Assembly: GCA_965153455.1 (NCBI GenBank)
Contig: OZ234493.1
Coordinates: forward strand, 21,566,213-21,630,212
Origin: Sphagnum compactum
Lineage: Eukaryota
Direction: 5' to 3'
Length of the DNA: 64,000 nucleotides
A program made the translations under genes and the position numbers. How positions within the stretch are numbered: the first letter of the stretch is position 1; every line of letters starts with the position of its first letter. This document shows, piece after piece, positions 6,780-62,632 of this stretch. The notes under the pieces are model-generated. The model did no database searches, was not told the origin of the DNA, and was given only the letters and a program-made list of their open reading frames with translations.

Positions 6780-9700
6780 ATGGCACTGAAGATTGGTCTG
6801 ACAGAAAACACCTTCGTAAGCTCTAAACCTGGATGGTTCTTCTTGCCTTCGTATTCCCTTCTCTTCTCCTCCTCCTCCTCCAGCTCTTCATTCCTTTCTC
6901 TCTGCGTGTTCCCCTCGCACACACTCTTCAAGCCTCTGAGGCTCAAGTCCTCCTCCTCAGCGGGTTCTGGAAAGAGGACTCGGGTTTGCGTCCGCGTCCG
7001 GTCGAGGTATGTGGCAGAGGACACCGGAGGGGGGGAGGAGGAGGAGGAGGATGATGATGATCCCTGGAGGGGTGCGAAGTGGGAACGGCAAGAGACAGCC
7101 TCCAGTGAAGGTGGCTTTGGGAGTTCAAGCCGGAGAGATGACGATGGTGAATTCGAGGAGTATGCTCCGGGATCAATTACAAGACGGACCTCCGTAGATA
7201 GGTATGACAGGAGTCGATTCTCTGGCAGGGTCACAAGGACGGATGATGAAGATGTGGGGTTTAACCGAAGTCGATTTTCTGGAGGTGTCGTCGGGAGGAA
7301 TGACGATGAAGGCGGAGAGCCGGACGCAAGCTCAATGCAGAATCGGAAGGAGGTTTTGTGGTGGAGGGAAGACAATGGAGGAGGAGACGGAGAGTTTGGA
7401 TTGGGGTCAGAGAAAGGAGAGTTAGGAAGAAGCCGGAGGTTTCTTCCCAACTCTGACAACAGACCGGAACCGAGAGTTCCATGGGGCCCATCATTAAGAG
7501 GATCGACGACGGCGTCTTCTGGACAGGAAAGCAATCCTGCTTCCAGGTATGTTTCTAGGTCAATTGGCTCACGCTCAGTCCCATCCAGACCTTCAATTCC
7601 AGGAAAGTTTTCAAAGTATTCCGAACGCAATGTGCAAAAGAACAATAATAGCTCCTGGTCCTCCCCTCCTCCTCCTCCTCCTCCTCCTCCTCCTCCTCCT
7701 CCTATGCCTCAGTCCTTGCAGCCATTGAGCTCCTCAGCTTCTCCAAATGCCTTCCCTACAGCTACACGAACCTTTGAATTTACAGAAGAGGAAGAAGCAG
7801 AGAGGAGAAAATATTTTGAAGAGGCAAGGATGGATCGGGAAGCCATCAGGGGACGGCAGAGATCAAAAGAGAAGAAGCCCAAGAAAACCAAGAATCGCCA
7901 TGTAATTCCTTCCAGACCTGTTCCAGGTCCAATGCCAGACTTTGATTACCAATTCAGCTACTCAGAAACCCCAAAAATAGAACCAATAGGGTTTCGAGAA
8001 CCGCAGTTCTCACCATTTGGTCCAAGCACAATGCCCAGACCTTGGACAGGCAAAGCACCATTGCCTGGGAGCAAGAAGAAGCTGCCTGAGTTTGATTCTT
8101 TCAAGCCACCTCCACCAAATAAAAAAGGTGTGAAGCATGTGCAACCACCTGGACCATATCCAGAGGGTGAAGGTCCTCAAGAGGCCATGTCAAGAGAGGA
8201 AATTCTTGGTGAGCCACTGACGAAGGAAGAAATTAATGATGCCATAGAGCGTGTTAACAAAGAGAACCGTCAGCTCAATCTAGGTACCTCTCTTCACCTC
8301 TTGCCCTTCGCATTTTTTGCAGATGTTTAGAATTGAGAGGAAATGTGGAGGGACACAGCCTAATGCATTTCATTTCATTCTTATGATGTAGGAAGGGATG
8401 GATTGACACACAATATGCTGGATCTGATTCACCAACACTGGAAGCGACGACGTGTTTGCAAGATCAAGTGTAAAGGTGTTCCCACTGTTGACATGGACAA
8501 TGTGTGCAATAAGCTTGAGGTTTTCATCTTCTCTTTTCCATCTGTCTTTTGTGTCAAAGTGGGGATGGGGTTTAGGACCAAGGCATGGGAATGAAAGCCC
8601 TGTGAACACAATTGTTCTCTGGCAAGGTGCTTTATTTATATTGGTTTCTAAGATTGTTGAGGTGAATTGATGTAAACACAGGAGAAGACAGGTGGGGTAA
8701 TAATCCACAGGGCTGGAGGTGTAGTGTATTTATTTCGGGGGCGGAATTACAATTACAAGAACCGACCTCACATCAGGCTTATGTTGTGGAAGCCTCCAGC
8801 TCCTATCTACCCCAAGCTTGTAGTGCCTGCTCCGGGAGGCCTAACAAAAGAAGAAGCAGACAAATTGCGTCTTCTTGGACGAAAGCTTCCAGCCATTCGT
8901 AAATTGGGTAAGTATGACACAAGCAGTTTGCATACACTGCAAAAGTGCTATAGAAGGATCTTGAATCCAACTTTGAATCTTGTTTGTGATATTCATGAAA
9001 GGATGTTGGGTTGCAGCGAAGAATGGTGTGTACTTGACCCTTGTGAAGGAGGTGAAAGAAGCTTTTGAGGTTGATGAGCTCGTCAAGGTGGACTGCCAGG
9101 GCCTAAATCCCAGTGATTACAAAAAGATTGGTGCCAAGCTCAAGGTTTCATTCCATCCAGCCTATCATCTCTGGTCATCATTTGTGATGTGTTTAGATAT
9201 CAGATGCTGAATGCTCTAACACTTTGGGTTGTCTATGGGTCTTGTCAGGATTTGGTGCCATGTGTGCTTCTGTCATTTGAGCGAGAGAGCATTTTGATGT
9301 GGAGAGGGCGTGATTTGCAGCCTGAAAGCTCCGAAGAGGATGGATCTAGTTCTTCTACTGAGGCTGCAGCAGATGAAGGGTTATTGCCTGAAGGGGGCAC
9401 TCTGCTGAAGGAAGCTGGTTCTGTAGTTGAGGAACAAAGCAACTATAAGGAGGAAGGTGGAGTGGCAGAGGGAGATGACAAGTTGCTTGCTGATGATGAG
9501 GATGGAGAGGCAGATCAAGAAGTGGCTGCCATGCAGCATGGTTCTGATTCACATGGGTCTACACTTGAAGCTGAGAGCAATGACAAAGACCATGAGCGAG
9601 AAAAAGCTAAAATGTCTTATACAGATGAGGACGACATTCCAGATGAAGAACTTGTAGTAGGAAGCCATACAGCAGAAAATCAACTACTTTTTGAAGAAGC

Positions 9701-18642: not shown

Positions 18643-21600
18643 ATGGCGGAGCGAGCTCGTGATCCTTCTTACCACTCTCGTGCGGACAGAGGAGCTCAGC
18701 AGCGGGATCCTCTAGCATGGGGAGAAGCGCGCCAAGATATGGGTTCCAGGGAATGGTCGGACTCTTGGAGCAGGGGGAGGAGGAATTGGTCGGGAGACGG
18801 CGGAAGATCCGGCAGAGGGGGAAGAAACTCACAGACGAGACCGGGAGATGGAAGCTTTGGAAGCGCCCGAGGAAGAGGTTATGGAAGAGGAGGTTATGAA
18901 CAGGAAACCAATGTGTGTTCGTCGAATTCTTCTGCCTGGCATGAAGAGAGAACGCACGGTTTCAAAGGAGAGACGCAAAATGCAACGAGTGCTCATGTTA
19001 GGGTTTTGCAGGGTGGCAACCGCGAGTGGGGCTTTCTTGGAGAGGCCAGCTACGCCAGAATGGACGGTGTGACCGCTTCAGGGCGGCAAGGAGTTCTTCG
19101 AGAAGGGTTGGGAGGAGGCGGTATTCAAGTTACAGTCTCGCGTGGAGGTGGTCGGGAAGTCACTTTGAAAGGAGGAGGGGATGGAGGGAGCAACTGTGGT
19201 AGCCAGAGCGGTACACCTCGTGGTAGGAAGGAGAACAGAGGCGGTCAAGAAAGTCTGAACTGGAGAGGAACTTCCAAGTCTTCATCCAGACGTGGAAGGA
19301 GCAACAGCAAGGACAGAGACGATGTCAGCAGTTTGGCTTCCAACGAAGATAGGCCAAGCTTCGCTGCGGAGATGCGACGAGAGGCATCCAGCAGCTCTGG
19401 AGGTTCGAGAGATGGTCGGAGTCGGGGAATCGGCTATGGTCAACGCGGAAATGAGAAGCAATTTCCAGGGAGAGCAGGTGAAGAGAGAGGGGTAGGCTAT
19501 GGGAGAGGGAACTGGGAAGGGAGATGGAGTGATTGGAGCCCTCGAGGTAGCAGTTACGGGAGCCCTAGGACACCGGAGGTCTTCAAAGATCAAGGCCGCG
19601 ATGGAACAATTGGGAGAGGAGAGAGAGATTTTGGGGATAGGAGATGGAGACGAGGAGGGGTGCACAATGCATACCAAGGTGCAGGGAGACAATCTGATGC
19701 ATACCAAAATGCAGGAAAATACTCTGTGAGAAGCGCAAGTGAAGCAGCTACTCCTTCTGGAAGCTGGAAAGAAGATGGTAGACTTGCCACTACTAACAAG
19801 CTCACTGAAGTCTTGGTGCATGGCTTGAAGGACAGTGGCACTGTAATCAACGATGCTCAGGACACTCAGAGCGATGAGAAGGTGATTACCATTTCTAATG
19901 CAAGATTTTTCTAGGGCACATGAATATTGCAAGCAAGATTGGAGACAGATACTTGCTTTCGAGAACTGGTTTCTGGAGCAAATCTTTGTTTTGATGATTT
20001 TGGTTTCCCTGTAGCTGATAGAACAGCCACCTTCAAAGGTGTTGTTGTGGAGTTTGCTCTGCAAATCTCATACATTGTGTATTGATCCCAAATTGTGGAA
20101 ATGCAGGGACATGTGCAGGCGACTGGATTTGTGCCTGTTGGAGATTCTGATGAAGTAGCACTGCAAACTGCAGCAGATGAGGATGTGTCACTTGCCATTA
20201 TTGGCACATGCGCTGACATGTGCCCAGGTGAGCTCCATGTGCATCTGAACAGTTGAGATTTTTTTGACTCAATATGCCATTGAGATTAAGAGTAATGCTT
20301 CATCATTGCAACCATTGTCTATGTTTGGGGTTATGACCTATACGGTGAACAACAAACTGGTGCTTGGTATTTCAGCTAGAGAGCGGGAGCAACGAGAAAG
20401 GCTACGAGATTTGGCAGTCTTTGAGCGTGTTAATGGAAATATCTCAAAGACATCAGCAGAACTTGCTGTTAAAAAGGTAAAACATGATACCAACCTAGGC
20501 TATGAGAAACAGGGCAAAATTGTTCTTTATGTGTGTTAATGGAAGTTTGTCACAGATGTGCAGAGCTTGCTGTTAAGAATGCAAATGTGACAGCACCCTA
20601 GGTTATGAGAATTTGTGGCAAAATTGTATTCTGTGCATTGCAAAACATGCTCAATTGGCTTATGTGGGAAATTTGGATGTTTGCAATTCCTATAAAGTTA
20701 GGGTTATTTGTTTGTTGGGTCTGTCTTTCCAAGTGCACCTTCCTTATAAGTTCTGGTTATTTCCTGATCTGTGTTGTTGACTTTGGATTTTTCTTCTTTT
20801 CCTTTTGTTGCCAATGTGTATAGTTTGTTATTCCATGCTTTCTATCCTTCCCTTGATAGGAGGAGAGATGTGAGCCCTCTAAGTCTCCCTCTTGCCGCCT
20901 CCATTCTTTTTTGGTCTTCAGTTTTCTGAATTTGTGTTTTCTTTGAATGAGTTCCATTTCTTGTATGACAGTTCTTATGGCTAGGAAGTTTCTCTTCTCA
21001 GCCTCAAATTGTTTAGCTTTAGCTCCTGTGAAAGAGTCATCCTATAGCTAACCCTCATGGGTCTTTAAGTTGTGGGAATGTTCTTGATCTTTTTATTGGA
21101 TTAATTGTAAGTCCAGACAAGTTCTCAGTATTTATCAAGCTCTTCTGTTTTAAGGGTGGTATTTAGAGATTTTTGGGCCACTGACTATAATAACAGTTTT
21201 GTAGGACTTTTTCAAGCACAAGTTTGCACCCATCAGATGTGCGCCCGCTTCCTGTGCTATGGCGGACACAGCACTATCTCTTGTGCATGTTGGATCGTCG
21301 TGACTACTCATTTGAAACAGTTCATGCATTTTTGTTTGACCGGACACGTGCGATACGGCAAGAACTTGGCATGCAGTCCATTCTCAACAGCCAGGCAATT
21401 TGCATGTTAGAAGAAATTGTACGTTTGGGAGTCGCTATCATTTCTTGCACTTGCTTTTTTCCTCATAGATGATAACGTAACATGGTTGATTGCCTTGGGT
21501 TGGAATTTTCTCACCCTTGTAGCTTTTGAATGACTTTTGAATGTTATACTGAGTTTATTACAGAGACACAAGATCAGACTATTGAATGTTACTGTTGTCT

Positions 21601-25526: not shown

Positions 25527-25573
25527 TTTCGGGCGTTCTAAAGCCCTGAAATGTACACTTTGTTGTGGTAGCC

Positions 25574-27126
25574 ATGGCGAGCAGATTGTCCACACGTGAT
25601 GGAGACGAGAGGGGACTGTTGCAAGGGAGCTCAAGCACTAGAGGTGGCAGAAGAGGAGGTAGACGGGATGACAGAGGCCGAGGAAGAGGACGAGGTGGGG
25701 GAAGAGGGGATGGTCGAAATGGCGGAGATGGTCGGAAGCGTAGGGCGTATGAAGGCGATGGAGGGCGCGACGAGGAGTTCGCCAACTTTTTTCGTCCTTC
25801 AAACGGCAACGGAAGTGTTAGGTGTGTGTTTCTTGACGTTTCGATTTGGCATAAGCAGCCGGAGAACTCGATAGAGTTGAAGAAGCTTGAATCTCGAAGA
25901 ATTCAGAGTAGAATGAACTCTTTCTAGACTTTGGTTTGTGGGAATTTGGAGGTCTTGCCACTCACGAGTGTGGTTCTTTTCCAGAGGACAAGTTGATCCA
26001 GAGACACAGCAGTACTTTTCAGAGATATCCAGACTAGTGGGGGAGGGAGGTTCAGTGGAGGACCCAGAAGAGAGAGCTGCCATTTGTGCAAGTGCTCTGG
26101 AAGAAGCCAAAGGCAAAGAACTTGAGCTTTCCTGCAATTCTTCATGTGGACGAGTTTTGGAGACTCTACTACTCAATAGTGAAATTTCGCTAGTGGTGTC
26201 ATTTCTTGAGCGATGCACTCATGTGTTTGCTTCCATGTCAATGGACCCGGGTGGTTCTCACGTGGTGGAGGCCGCTTTGAAGTCAGTGGCTGCCTCTTTG
26301 CGAGAGAATGGTGACGGGAATGGAGCTGATTGGTACCCTACTCTTGAGCATGCTTTGTCAAGAATCTGTGAGGTATTTCTTACTATCTGTAGCCTTCTAT
26401 TGTCCTCTATTATGTATACTGGTGTGGATGACCAACCTCCTTCTTGACCTGAGTTCTCAACCTGGCAGGCAATGGGAGAAGGCAGGAACGGATATTTTGT
26501 GATCTCTAGTCGATACGGATCTCATGTGCTTCGCCAGCTCCTTTCTCTCTTCAGTGGAGTTTCTCTGGAATCTTCTTCAAAATCAGGATCTTCAAAAAAA
26601 GGTGCAGCCAGCCTTGCTCTTCGATTAGGGACCAAATCTCGAACACCTGAGCAGTCATGGGGTCACAGCTTTCCCAATCAGCTAAAAATTCTCATGCAGA
26701 CTCTCCTGGAGGGTTGCCAGCAAAACATGGAGGAATTGCGGGCTAGTTCAGCTGCAGGCCCAGTATTACAGGTGAAGAGTGTTGCTGTGTTAAGTTATCT
26801 ATCTCACTTGGTTTCCCTTCTCAAGGACCTTCCTCTCAACAGTTGTGAGCTTTGGGCTTGCTGTACATTGGGTGCATCAACTCCACATTGTACAACCCCT
26901 TGTAGGTTGAAAGGCTTTCACCTATTATAGCTGTGGTACATGCACTTTGCAAGAGGCTGGTTCTAGGGATTGAGATGGATTTACAAGAGTGTGTTCTTCA
27001 GGCTTGTTAAAGGATTATAATTCAAATGTTGAACAAGAAGACTGCAGTGGCCAATCAGCAGAGCTTGTGTTGCAGATGACACAAGTGAGCATGCTCTTGT
27101 CTCATTTAGAACAAGAAAGTGCCATG

Positions 27127-32497: not shown

Positions 32498-35400
32498 TTA
32501 ATTGACATTTGACCAAAACCAATGCCAAGTGATAGGAGGGAGTTACAACCATATAACCTCCCAATATCTGGAATTTTGGGACATTTTAAAAAATCCAAAT
32601 CCTTAGAGTTGTAGGGGATTTCAGTCTGAATCTTTTGTTATTAAAAATGTGTAATTTGGGTGAGACACGAAAAATCCCCACTATTATTGAAAAGCGCAAT
32701 TTTATGAGATATGACACGGCTTTTTTGGTGTTTTTGGAGTATTTGATTTAGCTACCATAGTTCAATTATCCTAAAACTCTTAGTAGATGGAAGGTGCGCA
32801 GATGAGGTTAGTGAGAAAACAACTTCAACATTTGGACTTGAGATTAGGTAGAAATGAGTGGTCAAAGTTCCACAAACACAAAAAAAAAGCAAGCTATTTT
32901 CACTGTTCTGGGGCATGTTGTGTGATGAGGTTCAGTGTGTCCCAGAAACCTGCCAACTCCACCTTCAAAACTGGCAAAACTGGACTTTTCATAACATTGG
33001 CAGATAGCAAAACTTGAGGTGCTTGAAGATTTTTCTCCATTTTCAAGCTCAATTTTTTTAATAAATGAGCTTGAGCGACGAAAATGGCACATCAGAAGGG
33101 CAAGAAAGAACACGAAAGGTGTAGCCTATGTGTTAGTTCTTGACCTGGGACAGTATTGGGGATGAGTGGGGGAACCATTCTGGTCTGCACTGATGTTTAA
33201 GGGCCAAAATCAGCTCAAAAAATTTATCTCAATTTTTTTGGGAGACCCACAAGGAAAAAATGCCCACCCTTCACCAAGGAAAGATTACACACAGTAAGCC
33301 ACCCTCCAACGACACTAAAGTTTTTAAGCAAGTCTTACATATATGAGGGTGCGGATCAAAACAGACAAAAACATTCTCCATCAATATGAGAGGCTTGTCT
33401 TTACAGTTATACTTTCATTTGCTGCTGTGTTCCAGATTGCCTAATTATTCCTAATTCGGGTCGATCCTTGAGTCTGCACCCACTATTTTGGCCTACTCAA
33501 ATAGTTGGGGTTCAAATGTCAGTAGTGCACTTCCTCACTACTATGGGGCCTTTACCATTTTGGCAATAATTAAATTATTTTCAGTAAACATCAAAAAAAA
33601 AAATTATTAAAAAATTTAGCTGCCCACACAATGCAGGAAGTTCTAGAAACTCTGTTGCTACCTAGTGTATATGGTCATTTTGCTCATTCTAGGTCTACAT
33701 GGCCAGGTCTTTGAAAGTGCTGAAATTTCAGGAAGTTCTTGTTGTTATTGTCGAGTGAAAAAATGGAAAAATAAATAATTTTTCATCAAGCAGATGAATG
33801 AATGGTAAAGGTACTATTCCAGTATGGATGTCCTGTATTTAAGTGATTCTAAGTTGGTGAAATCACTTGGAAAGGCTCTCTCTCCCATAGTATCTTTACC
33901 ATTTTGACAACAAACTGTTAAATATTTAATTAAATTTGAAATCTTAACTTTGACACTTGGTTTTTTAATTTTGAATTTTTTTGTCAAATAATGATTATAA
34001 TAAATGATAAATTAGATCCTTTTCATTTAGACTTTATCATTTAAAAGTCATTGTTCTTGGGGTCTTGGGGGTCTGCAATTCAAAAGCCTAACAGTTGAAA
34101 TTTTTGAATCTATTAAAATTTTGGCACAAATAATAAATAATTTTTTGAAACAAAAAATAATTTAATTTATGCCGAAATGGTAAAGCTACTATTATAATCC
34201 CACAATTTGATTGAAATAGGTAGATATGACTTTCATGGCAATCAACCCCACCTTTCTCTTTTCCTCCCAAAAAGCGTACACTATAAAAAATAACTTGTGT
34301 CACCAAAAAAGAAGGGGAGGTGATTTTGATAAGGTATCTCTAACATTTTGAATACTTGTTCAACAAGATTTACTGAAAATGTCCAAAGAACAGAAAGAAA
34401 GTTACAACAAATATTGTTTCAAAACCTAAATTCTTTCAAAGTAATAGACTTTGTTATTATAGCTCTATGGACCTCAAGGGATCAAACCTTTCTTGATTTC
34501 CTCTTAAGGAGCCACTTGGTTGTTTACAAGCATGACCCTTCACCCACAGAAATCCCACAAGTGCTACCCCAACATCATTACGTAGTCTCTTCAGAAGTTG
34601 AGAAGTTGGACATGGATTAAAAACACAGCACCTAGATGTGATCGTCTACATCTCATAGTATCCTTTTGTTCCAAAATCCCTGGAGCTCTCACAATATCAC
34701 AGGTACTCTCTTCTCAGAATAGACCACATCACACATTCACATCAAAACCCCCAAAAATTGTCAAAGATGGTAGCTGCCACTACAACCGCTCCTGAGATCC
34801 TCGACTCTTTCATCATTTTCCTTGATCTGGTCCCTAAAATACAAATGCTAGACCTCCTCTTTCTGTCCTGATGTTCTTGACACAGCGAAAGTTCAGGCGC
34901 CAAATTCAAGAAAAAATGAAGTTCAGTGGGACTTTCGCCCTCAACTGACTACTATCAAAATCCAAACACACTCCATACTTCCTAACAAGCAAAATCGAAA
35001 CTTAGCTTCTCCCATGCCCCAAAAAAAAATCCTCCCCTTTCCTTCTTCTCACCCAACTTCATATAATTGTTCCTTGTCCACCTCCCTCCACTCCTTTGAA
35101 AGCTTAGCACTAATCGTCTTCGAGAACCACGATTTACACTCCCCATAAAGATTATCAATTGAACAGCAAGGATCCCGCTCCATGACCGAAACCAACTCAC
35201 CTAAGGCACTCCACAATAACCCGCAAAACAATAAACAAAAAAAAAGAAAAAAAAGAAGTAATTGAACTTTCAACATCCATGAAGGGCAACAGCTTCGAGA
35301 TCATTTGCCACATCAGCTAAATTAGGGTTTCTGCTTTCATCCACAGAAAAATGTTGTACACTGTTTTTGAGGTCACACTGTGTATTACGTTACCGACAAC

Positions 35401-35631
35401 AACAGAAGCACATCTTCCTTTGAGAATCAGCACGTCTACCTTTTGCAGCATTTTGATCTTCTAGTGCTTTCTTTTGTGTCATCGGAGAGAAAATCCCAGC
35501 ATCCTCGCGTCTTGGTTTGCTTGAGCTTCTTTAACATCATCGCTGAGTGACATCTCTACCCCGCACCCACAAGCTGGTCTGTGTATACAGCGCCTACGAC
35601 AGGCAGCCTGGTGCTCGGAGCTAGCTTCGTC

Positions 35632-36387
35632 ATGGCGCAAGTGTGGAAAGTTATAGCGGATACGTTAGAGAGCACTGCGCATTTGCTGCCCCCTCCAGCT
35701 GATTCGGCAGTGGGGCTGGTGGGTACCGTCGCCCGGCTGACTCAAAAGGCGCTGGAAGGCAAATAGGCAAGCAAGGAGAATCAGCGATATATAGAGCAGC
35801 TGATGAATCGCGCCGTGGATATGGCGAAGATCATCGAGAAATATGTGGCGGAATCTAGGTCCAGGGATGAGGTCTTCTTGCGATTCGTGACGAGCTTTCA
35901 TACCATCACGGAGGAAGTGTCCAGTTTCGTGGCGAATTTTGCGCACGAGCGATGGCTGCAGAGGCTGATGAACGGGAGAGCGGTGAAGTCCCAGTTTACG
36001 GATCTGTGGAGGCAGCTGGATGCTATTGCTGTGGACTTCACTATCCATTTTTTGAGGATCATGGATTCGAAAGGTCCTCATGAGCGCATCGAACATCCGA
36101 AACTTCGCGATTTCTGGAAACACAGTATGACGAACGTCCATGAGGCGAAGTGGATCCATTTCTGGGATCAGTTCCTGTTCGAGTTCCCCAGTGCACAACC
36201 GTTCTTGACTGGCGCCTCAGCCTCTGCCAACAAGGTCAAATTTCAGGAGAAAGCGCTCCCCAAAGACGCGAACTTCGTTGGTCCGTTGGAGATCAACAAC
36301 CTTTTCCAGCCGCCCACTGCCATTGTCGAAGAGATTCTTTCTTCCGTCCTTGCTGGTGATGAGCAAGCTGTCATACTGAAATACCAG
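35632..36387 (+). pseudogene. Exon encoding an MLKL-type four-helix bundle followed by a Cbl EF-hand-like segment; one in-frame TAG at 35764-35766
   Basis: ORFs 35581-35766 and 35803-36630 share a frame. LLPPPADSAVGLVG..K*ASKENQRYIEQLMNRAVDM..EEVSSFV..RWLQRLM..FTDLWRQLDAIAVDF fits the MLKL N-terminal pattern. RIEHPKLRDFWKH..WIHFW..NFVGPLEINNLFQP resembles the Cbl TKB EF-hand region. Donor CAG|GT at 36387. Confidence 0.6.
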
Positions 36388-36488
36388 GTTAAACTACTGT
36401 TTGGCACATCTGCTTTTGAGTCTGTTTCAAACTTGCGCTCTCCCTCAATTCACTCAGGAGGTGCCGGTGCTCTCAAAGCAGGCGGTAG

Positions 36489-38475
36489 GATGGGAACTCC
36501 AGATCATGGTTCACTTATGATGAGTTGTACTCTGCCACGGATGGATTTGCAGCTTCTAACCTTCTTGGAGAAGGTGGGTTTGGACGTGTTTATAAAGGAC
36601 ACTTGCCATCTGGTCAAGTTGTTGCAGTGAAGCAGCTTACGGTTGGTGGTGGTCAGGGCCACCGTGAATTCAGAGCTGAAGTTGAAATCATCAGCCGTGT
36701 TCATCACCGTCACTTGGTGTCTCTTGTTGGCTATTGCATTGCTGACACCCAGCGATTGTTGGTGTATGACTTTGTTCCTAATGGCACCCTTGCGGATCAT
36801 CTTCATGGTAAGCCATAAATGTTTACTTTATAATCCCAATCTGCAAAAGGGGTGGGTGAGTGTTTTAACCTGAGTCAGTGTAAAGGTTGGTTGTGTCGTG
36901 TGATTTCATGTGGGTTTGTTGGAATGAATTTCGGGGTATGTAGGCAAGAAGGGAGGGGTTGTGATGAACTGGGCTACAAGAGTGAAAGTTGCAGTCGGAT
37001 CTGCACGTGGGCTTGCATACCTTCATGAAGACTACAACCTCCGTATCATACACCGTGACATCAAAGCCTCCAACATTTTGCTTGACAACAACTTTGAAGC
37101 TCAGGTATGCAGCTTGGAGAACTTGATGTGGATATCTTACTAGGAACAGAAGGTGTATGTAACCCTTCATTTGCATTTTTTTATTTTAATGATTAATTTC
37201 CTCTTTTCCTGGTTTGCTGATATGCTGCCAGATCTGAAATCTCTATAATCTAATCAATTGGTCATCCCTCGAGTACACACAGGTTGACTTGCATTGTAAG
37301 TACAAAGAAGTTCTTGGGTACTTATGGAGATAATGTTTCAACAGGTTGCAGATTTTGGACTTGCAAAATTGGCTTCAGATGCAAACACCCATGTGACAAC
37401 CTGTGTGATGGGCACCTTTGGATATTTGGCTCCAGAATATGCAGCAAGTGGCAAGCTGACAGAAAAATCGGATGTGTTCTCGTTTGGTGTGGTGTTGTTG
37501 GAACTCATAACTGGACGAAAAGCTGTCGATCCAAGACAGCCACTTGGGGATGAGAGCTTGGCTGAGTGGGCCCGTCCACTGATGACACAGGCTTTAGAAG
37601 ATGGGAATGTTGACCAGATTGTCGACCCAGAACTGCGAAATGCTTATGATGAAAAGGAAATGTTTCGTATGATTGAAGCAGCAGCTGCTTGTGTACGCCA
37701 TTCTGCATCCAAGTGCCCCAAAATGGCCCAGGTTAGTCAAATTCTTCAACTCTCACTCTATTCATGGATGGATAACTTCTCAAATATGTTACGTTCTCTG
37801 CTTAAGTTGAGTTTACAGAAGTAGTAGTTCTTGGGCTTTTGACTTCTGATTTGATCTTGGAGCAGGTCGTTCGAGCACTGGAAAGTGCTGGAAAGTGATG
37901 CAGAAAATGCTGGCCTATACCAAGGCTTAAAGCCAGGTCACAGTGTTGAGCATAATGCTGTCTTTGGTGGTAGTCGTTTTGGTGGAGGGAGCTCAGACTA
38001 TGACACACAGAAGTATAATGCGGATATGCAGAATTTCCGAAAACTTGCACTTGGCAGCCAACAGTTAGGCAGTGAATATGCAAGTACATCAGGAGTTTCA
38101 AGTGAATATGATGCCAATCCATCCAGCACAGAGATGCAATCTGATTTCAATTCTGGAGAGGCTGCAATTGATGTTCGAGAAGAGGCTCCAGTGGCAGTGA
38201 GGGTTGGGAACGGTCAGGTACCACCAAGGTCAACTGGTGGCCTTGTGCAATGGAATGCTTCACAAAGCCCTGTGCATCTAAGGCAGCGGTCAGCTGGCTC
38301 ATCAGTAGCCAGCAGTGTTAGAACAGTGGGTACAAGAAGTGATTTACCAACCCGACCTCCTCCTGACCCCTTGGGTTATTCCAGCAGCAACTACAGCGGT
38401 GAGTATGCACCCATTGATTATGGTTCCACACCGCATACAAAGCTAATGGAAGCCCGAATCGAGGAAGGCAGATAA
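36489..38475 (+). pseudogene. PERK: 5'-truncated PERK-type (RLK/Pelle) kinase gene segment; exons 36489-36807, 36944-37104, 37345-37731, 37866-37898 (native stop 38475)
   Basis: [97 protein letters not shown]. No Pro-rich ectodomain or TM helix upstream. A 10-bp duplication frameshifts the last exon. Confidence 0.85.
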
Positions 38476-38848
38476 AAATATGTCTAGCTTACTTCTGAAG
38501 ACTGTGTTATACCTAATCAGGTCTCAAGAAAGTGTTGGTGGGGGGTGGGAACTGTATTTTGGTTCCTTGATAGGTCACTCCAATATGTCCTATTTGAGGT
38601 GAGCAATATGCCTGCTGGAGCCTTGATTTTATGTCAGATCTATTTTTCTGCTAGAATCAATTTTGTAGAGACAGGAGGGGAGGAGTGTACTGAAAAACTT
38701 TTTAAAGTTTCTGTATATTTGGGTGCCATCCAAATGTTGGCTACCTACACTGCTTGTACAAGTAGCAATTGTTTCTCCTTTTATCATAAATGATAACAAG
38801 TAGCTGCTATAACTCCCCCTACTACTGACTTCATCAGCTCTCAACATA

Positions 38849-40443
38849 GATGGTGGATACTACCAACAATCGTGTATCAGAAACTTCTTGAACCAATGTG
38901 CCCCAGGTTTCTGTTGCATTTCTGCAAGCAGTTTGTAATATTTAGTCATAATGTTGGCCGCCAAGCAATAGTCAGTGTACTCATGGGAGTTCTTTTTCAA
39001 GTTTAGACAAGCCAGCTTTAAGAGCCAGAGTACACCAGTCGGTCATGAAGAATTAACCACGTATTTGCATTCATTGGTACCCCCACTTCCTGCACTTTCA
39101 AGTATTTTGCTCATTAAATTTAAGTACTCTTACAATTAAACTGGGGTTGTAGTCTTTTTGGAAGGAAATCCTGGTCTGAACTGGTGTAACAGAAGCAAGG
39201 GAAAACGCAGCCCTCCCCCCCCCAAAGAATCCAAAGCTTAATTACCCCAAAGATCCTACTATCAGGTCAAAAGGTTAGGGCATTCACATGTTGTGTATGC
39301 ATGGCAACTATCAGTTCATGATCTCTTCCTAAATTCATGAAAACCATAACATTATTCACATTGCTTGCCAATGGTGCCACAAGATCTCTATTCAATAGTT
39401 TGCATGAAGGTGAATGCCATGGCAGTCAGGGACACATGATCAAGCAATACATTGGCCAGCACCAGGTGCTATACAATGGTAAAATCAAGGGCGCCACAAT
39501 GGATGGCACTTGGACGATCCATGAAGATCGGTGGCATAATTTGTCCGAAGGGGCCTTTCACCTCGAACTGCAATGCCCCAAACCGGTTGCTACAAAGGGA
39601 ACCAGGCCAGAAGTTGGAATGGTGCAAATAGGTGAGATGCAAGAATGGGCAGGTTATTACAAGCAGCAGGGTGAGAAGAGCAACATGGGTGCAAACATTA
39701 TCTTTACCGACAACCAAAAAATTTATGGCAACGGCATGGACTCTATTGGCCGCTTCACATGGCTTGGTTGTCTCTCAACCCTTATTTGACTTATGAAAAT
39801 GTTGGATGCACATTTGAAGAAAGACAGTGTTGCATTTTGATGTTCTGCTGGTGCTGATAGAATTTGTGAACCTTAAGGATTGGCTGGGAACACATCTTCT
39901 TAACCAAGTTTTTGGTTTTTTTCTAGGCCGGTACTATCAGGGGAGTACCTCAATACAGGTGGATCTGGTCAAGCAGTATGAAGGGAAACACCCAGTATAC
40001 TACCTGGGGAAGGTTGCACAAGAGGAAGATTACACAGTTGCTATGAAGGGTGTTTGGATGCTGTCAAGTGGAAAACACCAAGGGAAATTTCTCCTCCAAC
40101 TCCAAGTGAGCAACTTGAATGTGCAGTTCACTCTTCATTGCACTTGTTGATCTGATTTCCAACTTCATCACAAATCGCTTCAAAATGCATTTCGCTTTCC
40201 ATTTGCACTACTGTAAAGTAACACTCACTCTGAACAGTGTTCCTACTTATTATGCACATGATCTCCAATGTCCAGACAGAGACAGTTCTTGTGATCCATG
40301 ATAAAATTGAACAGGGCCAACACTTCACACCATTCCTACAAAAGACAGATCCAGATGCTAGAGCATTACAGTTTCCAATGGTAGACTCCCTGAGAATGCA
40401 CAAAATTGTGATCAGAGCTTTCTCTGAACACATGCATGTTTGA
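38849..40443 (+). pseudogene. Exons encoding two copies of an uncharacterised beta-rich repeat; 38849-~38905 and ~39260-39294 degenerate, 39410-39766 and 39927-40105 open, 40276-40443 possible last exon
   Basis: Repeat 1 ..IKQYIGQHQVLYNGK..MDGTW..GAFHLEL aligns with repeat 2 WAGYYKQ..IYGNGMDSIGRFTWLG..VKQYEGKHPVYYLGK..MKGVW..GKFLLQL. Phase-1 acceptors fall at the equivalent Gly in both repeats. Confidence 0.65.
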
Positions 40444-42746
40444 TCAGTGAGCCAAGCTATGAATACTAATACCATAGTGTCAAGTTAACACTCTCACAAC
40501 ATTAATTATTTTTAGGGTTGCAGGAAAATTTTAATTGTCCAGACCAGTGTTGTACTGGTATATAGGATAGACCCTTAGTATGTACAATGGTATGTATCCT
40601 TGATATGTTAAAACCCATTTGTTGGGTCTGTCTTAAAATACATATTTAGGTTGTTTTTAGAATCTAAGGTTTTCTTGTGTGGACCTACCTCTGTTTGAAA
40701 CATACTAGGCAAGGTTTACTCAAATTTAATACTGTGGTGAAACCACTACTAAGATAATAGATTGAAGTTGGGAGGGGTAGGTCTAATGGTTAGTAGTAGT
40801 GTAGAGCATCTCTTGTTTCTACTTTAAAGAGATCATGGAGTTTATAGTTGAGACATTGATAGATGGATGGAGGTGGAACAACTTTTTAAAATCAACATTA
40901 ATATTGTAGTGGGGTTTCTAAGGGCTACGTCATGTCCTAAGGCCTACATTGGGTTTATGGTTTATAAAACAACCACCTAACTATAACAAATTTTGATAAG
41001 ACAAATTAAACAACAATTTGCCTTCCGAAATTTGCAGATTTAAAAATCAAAATCAAAATCAACCGAATCATCAAGCTTGGTCTTTAAAGATCCTCCTCCA
41101 TCTGCTCCAACAAATATGTTTCAAGATCCCCAAAGTCATCAAGGGATTCAAATGCAAATGATTCACACACAAAATATGGATCATTTGGCCTTCTCTTGGA
41201 AATCAACACAAGTTGATTTAAATTTTGGGTTCCAAGTCAATATCTGCATAGCCCTTGTTAGAATCCTAACAATGGAAAAAATACATTCCATTTCAATCTG
41301 ACTTCCCACAAAACCCAAAAGTTTGACAAGCCAAGTATACAACAACAAGAAATTGTGCCTCATGAACCTTTCACCACTTTAGTGGATCTTCACAAGATTT
41401 TGCTTCTAATTGCAAATATAATTATAATATTATGTATTTATTAATATATTATGTATATTTATATTATATTATATAAATCAGAATTGTTTATATTGCAGAT
41501 TCTGAAAATAAGAAAGTTCTTGTTTCACCTTTCTATTTTTGACCTGCAAGGAGAGCAAAAAAATCCTTTCAAATAATGTAATAACACATAGAAACCTATA
41601 TTGGCAATAGACACAACATAAAATTATATTATTATTTTCATGCTACATAAAACCATTCAAAAAATAAATAAATGATGAGATTTTTTTCCCCATTGGCTTT
41701 AGATGGAAGAAAATAGATGTAAAATAGAGGGACAAAATTCATGTGGGTTCACAAAGGAAAGAAAAACATGTAATTAATTTGATAAAAATGATAAAAAAAA
41801 CTATGGGTCTACAAAGAGACCAAAAAAGCAAGAAAGGAAAAAAACTTTTGCATTGCACCATATTTACTTCACTGGTGAATAAGAGCACTAGGTCCACAAA
41901 GAGGGCAAAAAAATGAAAGAGAACAAAAAGCTTGTTCCTCTGTTGCACAAACTTCTTTTTTAGATGGATGAACTTTTTTAATCCACTGCATAGGTCTCCT
42001 TTTTCGGGCTTTAGTAAACACAATGCATAACAAATACCCCTAACAACAAAATAGATTCAATAAACAAATCATAAGAAAAAAATATTGGATAAACACAAAG
42101 AAAGAGAACACAACAAAAACTTTTCACAAGACAAGATGATTGTTCAATGCTGGTGAAACCTAATAGCTCCAAATAAATAAGTTTGACCTATAGCATGAGA
42201 CGATTATTCAAGTGCATTTTTAGCCCGTTCCTTGATCTTGAACAAGGATCAAAGACTTTTTTGATCTCTTGCTCATGAATATTTGCATTGTGAAGTGAAG
42301 ATTTTTATTAATCTATGCAAGCTTAAAAGCAACATCAAAAGCAAATGTTAGGGGGAAAAGTGCTCTTGTGAGAAAACAATGATGCAATCAACAACACACA
42401 AGAGCAACAATCCATATGGCGATGTAATTAGGGTTTAAAGTTTTAATCTTTTTTACCCTAATTGTTTTTAACCCTCTGTGGAAAGGCCTTTTGCAGGAGA
42501 ATAATGAAATTATATTGCCACTGTGGGAAATTTCCTGTTGGAGCAATTCCCATGGATTATATAATTTGCTTTGACTAATCATATCCTTGATGTAAGGGAA
42601 GAGATTCTAAGAAAAAGCAAATAGCTAAGCTGGGCCATGGTTTGTGGTTAAAAGCAATTCACAGCTGGAACAATGTATGGAAAAATATCTTTCTGTGAAT
42701 GCCTCAAGACACTAAGAAAAAACACTAACAAAATGACTGTTGATTT

Positions 42747-61100: not shown

Positions 61101-62632
61101 TCAAGGAGCTCATGGCACCTTACTGTCTTTAGCTTTTCCTCCTTCATCCTACTTATGAAGGACTATTTTTCTATCTCTCATTCCCCCTCTTCCCGTTTGC
61201 CTTCTTGTCGTTGGTTTCTGTATCATCTCTTTCTCCTCTTCTTTGGTTCTGGTTGTCACTTTGGAGTTTCTTTGCATGTTATCAGTTCAACTATTTTGGT
61301 TTACTCATATTGGTAGTTTGGAGCATTTGTTATACCTATGGGACTTTGTTTTGCCTCATAATATGTGTCCTTCTGTTGTTCAGGTTCCACTGTTCAATCA
61401 AATGGACGACAGTCTCCTAGATGCCATGTGCGAGCGGTTGAAACCTGCTCTCAGCACAGAGCACACCTTCATAGTCCATGAGGGAGATCCAGTGAATGAA
61501 ATGCTGTTTATCATCCGTGGCAAATTGGAGACTACAACAACCAATGGTGGTCGTACTGGCTTTTTCAACTCTGGGATTATTGTATCAGGAGGTTTCTGTG
61601 GGGAGGAACTGCTTACATGGGCTCTTGATCCCAAGACTAGCAACAATCTTCCAACATCTACTCGTACAGTACGGGCATTGGTGGAGGTGGAAGCCTTTGC
61701 CCTGTCTGCTGAGGATCTCAAGTTTGTGGCTAGTCAGTTTCGACGCCTGCATAGCAAGCAACTGCAACATACATTCAGGTTTGTGCTTTTGATTTCTCCT
61801 TTTGTGGTCTTCTACTAATATTTCACATTTTAGTGTCTAAGATAACAGCAGCACCTATTGTGGAGAATACTGAAAGACTGCTCTGCATTAGTAAACATGG
61901 AGTTCACAATTTTGGAGCAAACGAGGAAGCACATGACTGGTCATCATCACCAGACCACCAACTGGGCTATAAAATGACCATCAACTGACCATGCATTGTC
62001 TTTTTGGAGCCCCCATATGAAACAAACCTGTCCTATGATATTCCTAATACTATGAATCCAATCATGAGACTTATGATCCAAATGTCAGTTTGTGACTGTG
62101 GTGGCATTATCAGATTCTGTCTTTATTCTCAATATTGAGTGTTTAATTGAGTCACAATCTCACCTCATGGAAGAGGGTGAGGGTTGATCAGTCCATATAG
62201 ATCCTCCCCCACTGAATATAACAATGACGATGGTTTACTTATGTACTTTGTCACTCATCATTCTTTAATGCCTACATGAAAGTATTCCATAGTATTCTTC
62301 CATCATAACTGGTTGCTTTCTATTGCTGCAGGTACTATTCACATCAGTGGCGCACATGGGCAGCATGCTTTGTGCAGGCTGCATGGCGACGCTACTGCAG
62401 ACGCAAGATTGCAGAGCTACGGCGCATGGAAGAAGATCTCAAACTGCAGGAAGCAATGGCTGGGGCTGATAAAATGCTTACAAAGCCAAGCCTTGGAGCT
62501 GCATTAATGGCTTCACGTTTTGCCACAAATGCAATGCGAGGAGTTCAAAGGCTACGAACAATACATGCAGCAGAGATGACACACATATCCAACATTCCTA
62601 AGCCCACTGAACCTGATTTCTCTCTTGAGTAG
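58142..62632 (+). CDS. CNGC: Cyclic nucleotide-gated channel; exons 58142-58212, 58679-59234, 59375-59587, 59795-60102, 60250-60361, 60547-60783, 61384-61778, 62332-62632
   Basis: EKKKFVR first exon, ILDPRSKF..WNKFF, FGRGELV, ETAWAGAA, LIGNMQTYLQS, DIKRHLCLDLV, CNBD (FCGEELLTWALDP, LPTSTRTV, EAFAL), QLQHTFRYYSHQWRTWAACFVQAAWRRY, KPTEPDF. All junctions GT-AG and in phase. Confidence 0.96.

Follow-up and report, generated by a model that had tools for sequence, protein, structure and literature searches.

Proteins of the MLKL type, including those of plants, consist of a HeLo four-helix bundle, a brace and a pseudokinase, as set out in the excerpted account (10.1101/681015). A chimeric gene of another kind, maize p2/p1, is attributed in the excerpts of its description to end joining with deletion and filler DNA (PMC2686159). 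Helical bundles also form the N-terminal domains of NLRs in non-flowering plants, bryophytes and ferns, designated CC(Cbl-N) in the corresponding excerpts (PMC11218826). The subject of the present study is a locus at positions 35632-40443 of a stretch of Sphagnum nuclear plant DNA with GT..AG introns (the window, i.e. the whole 64-kb stretch), where sequence of a PERK kinase gene lies within a small gene, hereafter the host gene, whose intact relatives encode a helical bundle followed by two beta-barrel repeats. A preliminary description had taken the locus for a simple insertion that created an MLKL-like protein architecture.

The 3′ part of a PERK gene, 2,952 nucleotides (nt) with its introns and 3′ flank included, has replaced 520 nt of the host gene. 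Most likely the locus is a chimeric pseudogene that is transcribed and confined to one lineage; end-joining repair is its probable origin, and an intact protein would not be expected from it.

In the REARRANGEMENT comparison, RNA and DNA sequence runs were aligned to positions 35400-40700 of the window. They comprised raw reads of a polyA RNA run whose species label is identical to that of the window (X22; a single run, about 12% of its reads used, splice joints tabulated at a threshold of at least 3 reads per joint), contigs of a moss metatranscriptome (X16) and DNA contigs from two other organisms, organism B (X9) and organism E (X14). Host exons were located by tblastn of the Sphagnum jensenii protein P0002 (484 amino acids, aa) against the whole window at E≤10; the PERK reference, likewise compared with the window by tblastn, was the Sphagnum troendelagicum protein P0004. 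Relatives of the host protein were sought among 1.84 billion representative proteins at E≤0.001.

Replacement of host sequence by a PERK fragment

The host gene is recognizable on both sides of the kinase sequence. Exon 1 ends, as previously proposed, at a phase-0 donor (CAG/GT, 36387), and the relatives change to the next exon at precisely that point. P0002 residues 305-422 align to 39409-39768 and residues 420-484 to 39920-40114, and the host intron between the two (39767-39926) is removed in an X16 contig. For exon 2 of the relatives (P0002 residues 253-304, 52 codons), tblastn at E≤10 finds no counterpart in any part of the window. The architecture of the host family (P0002, P0014, P0016, P0020) is thereby incomplete in the window, with exons 1, 3 and 4 kept and exon 2 gone.

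The limits of the foreign segment are given by contigs from other organisms. A single contig in X9 and another in X14 follow the window over 35400-36455 and again over 39408-40700, the two parts being separated by 520 letters unlike those of the window. Like P0002, these contigs link the bundle to the repeat exons without interruption, which provides the intact relatives called for in the preliminary description and bears out its view that an intron-containing genomic PERK fragment sits inside a bundle/beta-repeat gene; the PERK sequence nevertheless took the place of host sequence, exon 2 included, and was not simply inserted. Conversely, contigs of the parent PERK gene (X9 record 19, X14 record 6 and the spliced X16 record 10) match the window to 39408 and then diverge. 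Two open reading frames (ORFs) of other Sphagnum, P0013 and P0044, continue from exon 1 into intron 1; they follow the window as far as ..SPSIHS (36456) and differ thereafter. The fragment had earlier been thought to begin at 36489 and to measure about 2.36 kb. P0004 residues 215-225 are encoded at 36457-36489 and the host match ends at 36455, so that 36489/36491 marks sequence lost inside the PERK copy and not the start of the copy. The parent contigs of three runs remain collinear to 39408, which yields the length of 2,952 nt. The boundary formerly drawn at 38849, with GGYYQQ read as the start of the beta repeat, falls within the PERK flank, which continues over 38849-39407.

The features of the locus are the following:

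35632-36387, + strand, host exon 1 with bundle and helical middle (P0002 residues 1-252, 92.9% identity by tblastn); transcribed, X22 RNA depth 6-13
35764-35766, + strand, in-frame TAG (codon 45) peculiar to the window's species (Glu in P0002)
35803-35805, + strand, ATG, a species-specific change from GTG (Val in P0002)
36388-36455, + strand, remnant of host intron 1 (X9, X14 and X16 host contigs match through 36455)
36456-39407, + strand, PERK-derived segment, 2,952 nt in place of 520 host nt (X9 and X14 host joints; parent contigs)
36457-36489, + strand, PERK juxtamembrane coding remnant (P0004 residues 215-225, 11 of 11 identical)
36490-36491, + strand, site of a frameshifting internal deletion of about 130 nt in the PERK copy (P0004 residues 226-269, 44 codons, missing)
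36492-36807, + strand, PERK kinase exon, N-lobe (P0004 residues 270-376, 98% identity; Pfam PK_Tyr_Ser-Thr, E=9.3e-16)
36808-36943, + strand, PERK intron GT..AG, spliced (X22, 10 joint reads with 7 starts)
36944-37104, + strand, PERK kinase exon with the HRD motif, Cys>Tyr and Pro>Leu (P0004 residues 375-429, 95% identity)
37105-37344, + strand, PERK intron GT..AG, spliced (X22, 18 joint reads with 13 starts)
37345-37731, + strand, PERK kinase exon from DFG to subdomain XI, two Arg>Cys (P0004 alignment)
37732-37865, + strand, PERK intron GT..AG, spliced (X22, 3 joint reads and 5 short-overhang reads at 37863; one spliced X16 contig)
37866-38475, + strand, last PERK coding exon, original stop at 38473-38475
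38476-39407, + strand, PERK 3′ untranslated region and flank (parent contigs collinear to 39408)
39408-39766, + strand, host AG acceptor (39408-39409) and exon 3 with beta repeats (P0002 residues 305-422, 85.8% identity)
39927-40150, + strand, host exon 4, end of beta repeat 2, silent (P0002 residues 420-484, 84.6% identity; X22 depth 0)

The segment encodes a PERK-type kinase domain and C-tail (P0004 residues 270-652 by tblastn, with matches of named PERKs to the tail). For the ectodomain and transmembrane (TM) helix (P0004 residues 1-214) the window offers no specific counterpart, the matches obtained being Pro-rich and due to composition, in line with the earlier statement that both are lacking. 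The kinase is 95-98% identical to P0004. The juxtamembrane remnant at 36457-36489 lies in the host frame and out of the kinase frame. The deletion that follows it is also indicated by X9 and X14 contigs, which have extra letters between 36490 and 36491. A perfect tandem duplication of 10 base pairs (bp; 37878-37887 and 37888-37897) generates a TGA at 37896-37898; P0004 reads straight across this site, and X14 record 5 spans 648 window letters with 637 of its own.

The kinase motifs VAVK, HRD, DFG and APE are retained in the PERK copy, which differs from P0004 at 13 of 384 residues when the misaligned first column is set aside. Five of these differences lie in columns that do not vary among 9 PERKs (166 columns), where random placement predicts 5.6; they are Cys>Tyr and Pro>Leu beside HRD, Arg>Cys at two sites and Lys>Asn at one. 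In a leave-one-out control, genuine PERKs carry 0-13 changes in invariant columns, so that the raw count of five (six with the misaligned column) is not unusual alone, and the informative part is the share of invariant-column changes among the 13 differences. On this alignment the substitution pattern looks neutral.

Two stretches of the segment behave as short repeats. DNA contigs accumulate at a dispersed 33-nt repeat in PERK intron 2 (about 37212-37245), 8-11 of them in each run, with a summed depth that reaches about 705, and loose ends flank the repeat on both sides in all four runs. All 37 X22 reads over 37228 have T for C and loose ends on both sides, which points to other expressed loci as their source. 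The repeat (37211-37243) has no second copy in the window and no Rfam match; Rfam on 35000-41000 gave three rows with E 0.15-0.74, all far under the gathering scores. The second stretch, 38824-38909, stands out in the contigs of other organisms by raised depth, by loose ends at 38824 and by small joints from 38846 to 38909 and from 38851 to 38907. Here the PERK 3′ flank either carries a short repeat or is prone to indels; the GATGG at 38849 that had been read as a boundary lies within this stretch.

Elsewhere in the window, Pro-rich translations at 7000-8200, 19000-19700 and 25560-25810 match the PERK ectodomain by composition only and are not PERK sequence. Among 10 long neighbouring ORFs scanned, the only domains identified, a NOP9-like PUF domain at 25917-26447 (E 4.2e-9) and a cyclic-nucleotide-binding domain in the ORF at 61159-61818 (E 8.6e-8), are unrelated to the locus. 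At its 3′ end, 40234-40443 has no homologue, no RNA and no Pfam family at E≤1.

Transcription and coding capacity of the chimeric locus

From X22, 348 reads were aligned to the region, and 267 of these reach at least 99% likeness. Almost all first mates lie on the minus strand, which with the usual stranded library indicates RNA on the + strand; a few first mates on plus map to 37878-38585. Over 35577-36461 the depth amounts to 6-13 and over the PERK exons to 9-30; it falls through 10.3, 2.9 and 0.15 in the PERK 3′ region with 2.9 at 38763-38939, stays at about 0-1.5 to 39470 and is 0 over 39471-40700, the RNA fading at about 38760-38940. The three PERK introns are removed by joints from 36806 to 36943 (10 reads), 37101 to 37342 (18 reads) and 37728 to 37863 (3 reads and 5 with short overhangs). 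That the copy itself is transcribed follows from its own letters, which predominate at 37034 (22 of 25 reads, 3 parental) and 37040 (23 of 26, 3 parental); at 38243 and 38259 parental letters occur in about half of the X22 reads. The host promoter still fires, with transcripts over exon 1 and the PERK part that end near the PERK poly(A) region. Since the RNA ends there, exons 3 and 4 are orphaned: exon 3 retains an open frame and is silent, with X22 depth 0 from 39471.

The MLKL-like architecture had been expected from splicing of the exon 1 donor at 36387 to 36489, and an RNA check of this joint versus 36387 to 36458 had been proposed. Neither joint is among the X22 joints listed at the threshold of at least 3 reads, and neither a joint of bundle to kinase nor any other joint starting at 36387 is listed there, as against 10, 18 and 3 reads for the PERK introns. 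The coding arithmetic behind the proposal was correct. Recomputed with the three PERK introns removed, the 36387 to 36489 join gives a continuous ORF of 494 aa, from ATG 35803 to TGA 37898, with no internal stop. The pyrimidine tract of the AG at 36456-36457 (16 of 20) is indeed better than that of the AG at 36487-36488, before 36489 (9 of 20); use of the former leads to a frameshift with a stop after 20 codons. Confirmed Sphagnum acceptors at the locus are pyrimidine-poor too (8, 9 and 12 of 20). Among nine AGs between 36400 and 36560, two give an open in-frame join, so that the existence of an in-frame AG is weak evidence. The 494-aa ORF exists on paper only.

The first ORF is also interrupted by a change overlooked in the preliminary description, the in-frame TAG at 35764-35766. 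Position 35764 is T in 10 of 10 X22 RNA reads and G in X16, X9 and X14 contigs; at 35803, A is read in 6 of 6 X22 reads and G in X16, X9 and X14. The two species-specific changes, GAG>TAG and GTG>ATG, are 39 nt apart, and the new ATG lies 13 codons downstream in frame; the pair may be a coincidence or a route to re-initiation. Read-through of the unspliced intron remnant leaves ORFs of 44 aa (35632-35766) and 275 aa (35803-36630), with the kinase out of frame and the last ~80 residues of the 275-aa ORF derived from intron and out-of-frame sequence. A product starting at ATG 35803 would begin at residue 58, inside predicted helix 48-73, and would lack the first two helices. Intact protein would not be expected, because codon 45 ends the first ORF, no upstream start connects with the kinase frame, the unspliced ORF from ATG 35803 ends at 36630 and both partners carry disabling mutations of the neutral-decay type.

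Origin of the locus and competing explanations

We propose that a break in the host gene, in an ancestor of the window's species, was repaired by copying the 3′ part of a PERK gene located elsewhere. The copied stretch starts in the juxtamembrane exon, takes in three introns and the stop codon and reaches the 3′ flank; the host lost to it the remainder of intron 1, exon 2 and almost the whole of intron 2. The mechanism was probably end joining, with filler DNA copied in, or synthesis-dependent repair off an ectopic template. Judged from the end coordinates of the matches, host and parent sequences appear to overlap by at most ~1 nt per junction; the absence of junction homology together with the replacement of 520 nt fits end-joining repair with filler DNA, a process that has given rise to chimeric genes in plants (PMC2686159). 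Over 2,068 nt the copy shows 40 letter differences and 12 gaps relative to the PERK gene of organism B, and the host flanks differ from those of organism B by 14 in 1,056 nt and 20 in 1,293 nt. These divergences are similar, which makes the copying about as old as the split between organisms A and B; organism B is without the event.

Several observations weigh against this account. The 3′ junction falls just 2 nt ahead of exon 3 (39407-39410) with the AG acceptor kept, which a random break does not explain. The repair mechanism itself is deduced from its product, and the parent PERK gene is known from contigs of other organisms, not from this genome. On the RNA side, depth in the bin 36285-36461 is 5.76 compared with 9.66 and 9.18 in its flanks, which would also be expected from removal of the intron remnant; exon 1 depth itself spans 5.8-12.8, so that the dip cannot separate read-through from splicing. 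Listing joints at 3 or more reads leaves room for a minor 36387 to 36489 isoform, and the RNA comes from a single run, ~12% read and perhaps of the same project as the assembly. Finally, all four catalytic motifs of the PERK copy are intact, and the ATG at 35803, in frame 13 codons past the new stop, makes re-initiation possible.

Other origins of the fragment fare less well. A processed (retro) pseudogene was rejected because three GT..AG introns have been kept and are spliced in the RNA. Elements of the Pack-MULE and Helitron type move intron-containing gene fragments in plants, and the two short dispersed repeats inside the segment (~37212-37245 and ~38824-38909) might suggest that such a gene-capturing transposon brought the PERK fragment, leaving the structure of the locus as described. 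The repeat search, however, found no terminal inverted or direct repeats and no target-site duplications at 36456 and 39407, only short chance pairs. Helitron ends have the form TC...CTRR, which the AGGAGG start and GCATGA end of the segment do not resemble. Parent contigs are collinear throughout, so the dispersed repeats are the parent gene's own, and the deletion of 520 host nt at the site is typical of repair, not of transposition. With introns kept and no terminal repeats, the segment does not qualify as a retrocopy or as an obvious case of transposon capture, and the latter is considered unlikely. Chimeric joins made by the assembler at 36455/36456 and 39407/39408 are the least probable of the explanations, although the 3′ junction is suspiciously near an exon boundary. 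RNA carrying the same species label reaches depth 6-13 on exon 1 and gives 0 reads on exons 3 and 4, as for a true interruption, and no X22 loose ends at 36455/36456 are among the rows listed. A fraction of 0.72-0.93 of the sampled 31-letter words occurs in each of eight organism A DNA runs, which stem from three studies and the best of which may be the source sample.

Function of the chimera has to be weighed in the same way. A newborn MLKL-like protein of 494 aa, produced by a minor or condition-specific 36387 to 36489 splice, would agree with a join that is in frame and open, with transcription on the right strand, spliced PERK introns and preserved kinase motifs, and with a pyrimidine tract (9 of 20 before 36488) comparable to the confirmed acceptors. 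It is opposed by the lack of that joint at the 3-read threshold where PERK introns of similar depth have 10, 18 and 3 reads, and by the codon-45 TAG, which forces a start at residue 58 within helix 48-73 and leaves the bundle incomplete. The changes look neutral and include Arg>Cys at the invariant subdomain-XI Arg and Cys>Tyr and Pro>Leu by HRD; the C-tail is lost through the 10-bp duplication; and neither protein search contains an annotated or predicted bundle-kinase fusion. We regard it as highly improbable. Only slightly more credible, and still very unlikely, is a new use of the chimeric RNA, as a regulatory non-coding RNA or through a 275-aa truncated protein from ATG 35803. Steady polyadenylated + strand expression (depth ~10-30 from 12% of one run) and the species-specific ATG, in frame just past the species-specific stop and opening the ORF 35803-36630, speak for it. 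Young pseudogenes, however, are often transcribed from an inherited promoter, the 275-aa ORF ends in ~80 residues of intron and out-of-frame sequence and is without the first two helices, and the structure, confined to one species, has no sign of conservation. A nascent chimeric gene, whose 494-aa partial-bundle/active-kinase protein (ATG 35803, minor use of AG 36487-36488 in certain conditions) or 275-aa bundle product had been recruited as an immune component or decoy, is hardly to be expected; if real, such a product would have been recruited after the ancestral beta-barrel protein was lost. The preliminary description had left a new or a decaying immune gene as alternatives: decay is favoured by the TAG at codon 45 and the damaged kinase copy, and novelty is not.

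Read as a pseudogene born of break repair, the locus offers a clean, datable case in which an intron-containing gene fragment was pasted into another gene, where it redirects transcription and polyadenylation and orphans the downstream exons. For annotation it should be treated as a pseudogene and not as a kinase fusion.

The intact host family and known systems

The more interesting lead is the intact ancestral family of bryophytes and a fern, in which a bundle weakly similar to MLKL_N is combined with two beta barrels resembling avidin, an architecture of which no description was found in the literature searched. The window's species may be a natural knock-out of this ancestral gene. The family is tiny: 11 proteins, with members from Sphagnum, the liverwort Calypogeia fissa and the fern Adiantum. 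Intact relatives of 484 aa carry the bundle, a helical middle and two beta-barrel repeats in one ORF, and their coding end corresponds to 40114, inside exon 4 of the window. The repeat exons of the window match annotated P0001 (S. troendelagicum, 417 aa, 90% identity) as well as P0002 and P0003 (285 aa), both of S. jensenii. P0001 skips 35719-35924 and reads 35925-36053 in a different frame, a switch inside the bundle, and P0003 begins past the bundle and is without part of beta repeat 1. This frame switch and this truncation suggest that P0001 and P0003 are also damaged and that the family is perhaps one of fast turnover.

Pfam MLKL_N, with a cut-off of 27 bits, matches window exon 1 at E=0.0053 (16.7 bits) and P0002 at E=5.4e-4 (19.9 bits), and 5 of the 11 family members at E≤0.1, all below the cut-off; Cbl_N gave no match at E≤1 for window exon 1 or P0002. 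The AlphaFold model of P0002 (predicted local distance difference test, pLDDT, 77.8) has long helices at 2-16, 23-42, 48-73, 80-105 and 115-146, smaller ones to residue 252 and then two eight-stranded beta units. The model of the N-terminal domain (pLDDT 74) reaches Z 10.8 to the MLKL N-domain 6ux8 (root-mean-square deviation 2.5 over 118 residues), 10.2 to AtMLKL3 6ka4, 9.0 to the Cbl TKB domain and 8.2-9.1 to NLR CC domains. Designed helical bundles outscore MLKL with Z up to 13.1, and the structure tool itself warns that Z below ~13 is unspecific for helical bundles. Foldseek gave nothing for this domain at E≤0.001, its weak top rows being the Cbl TKB domain (E 0.13-0.3) and 6d74 (E 0.53), and the family profile retrieved from PDB sequences a single chance row (E 1.1). 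The label of an MLKL-like, Cbl-like four-helix bundle is plausible and not proven. The beta repeats (P0002 residues 263-356 and 379-480) are predicted to be eight-stranded barrels, weakly like tandem streptavidin and TbpB barrels (Foldseek E 1.1e-4, TM 0.17-0.30). Their ESM Atlas matches are unnamed clusters with scores of at most 0.90, avidin at 0.78 being a lead only, and Pfam found no family in the repeat exons at E≤1. One relative from an EukProt source, P0023 (1,643 aa), has this N-terminal module as well and combines a sub-threshold MLKL_N match (20.5 bits, residues 332-429) with homology to the host middle region; the module precedes a P-loop-like motif, recognized by eye, and TPR repeats (TPR_12, E 2e-31), in an NLR/STAND-like architecture.

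At the DNA level the locus resembles MLKL in that a weakly MLKL_N-like bundle adjoins a kinase domain. The two are, however, unjoined in the listed polyA joints, the bundle ORF is broken by the TAG, and the kinase, copied recently from an RLK-type PERK (95-98% to P0004), is not of the MLKL pseudokinase lineage. The CC(Cbl-N) domains, as presented in the excerpted report (PMC11218826), are likewise N-terminal helical-bundle modules, a likeness to which the weak Foldseek rows for the Cbl TKB domain and the placement of the P0023 module before a P-loop-like motif and TPR may be added; the host protein differs from them in lacking NB-ARC, in ending with two beta-barrel repeats and in the absence of a Cbl_N match at E≤1. 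From a PERK gene derive the kinase exons, intron positions, C-tail and 3′ flank of the segment, but not a Pro-rich ectodomain, TM helix or promoter, and the 44-codon deletion, the 10-bp duplication and the changes of invariant residues set it further apart. The excerpts on maize p2/p1 (PMC2686159) describe an intron break, loss of adjoining exon sequence, homology-free junctions and a chimeric transcript, all of which recur here. There, according to the same excerpts, the filler was ~50 bp from nearby, whereas ~3 kb from an unlinked or unknown locus was copied here, and p2/p1 is reported as expressed and protein-encoding in contrast to the non-functional locus of the window. The locus is best filed with the chimeric pseudogenes that arise from break repair, as the carrier of a PERK-derived fragment and not of a PERK gene.

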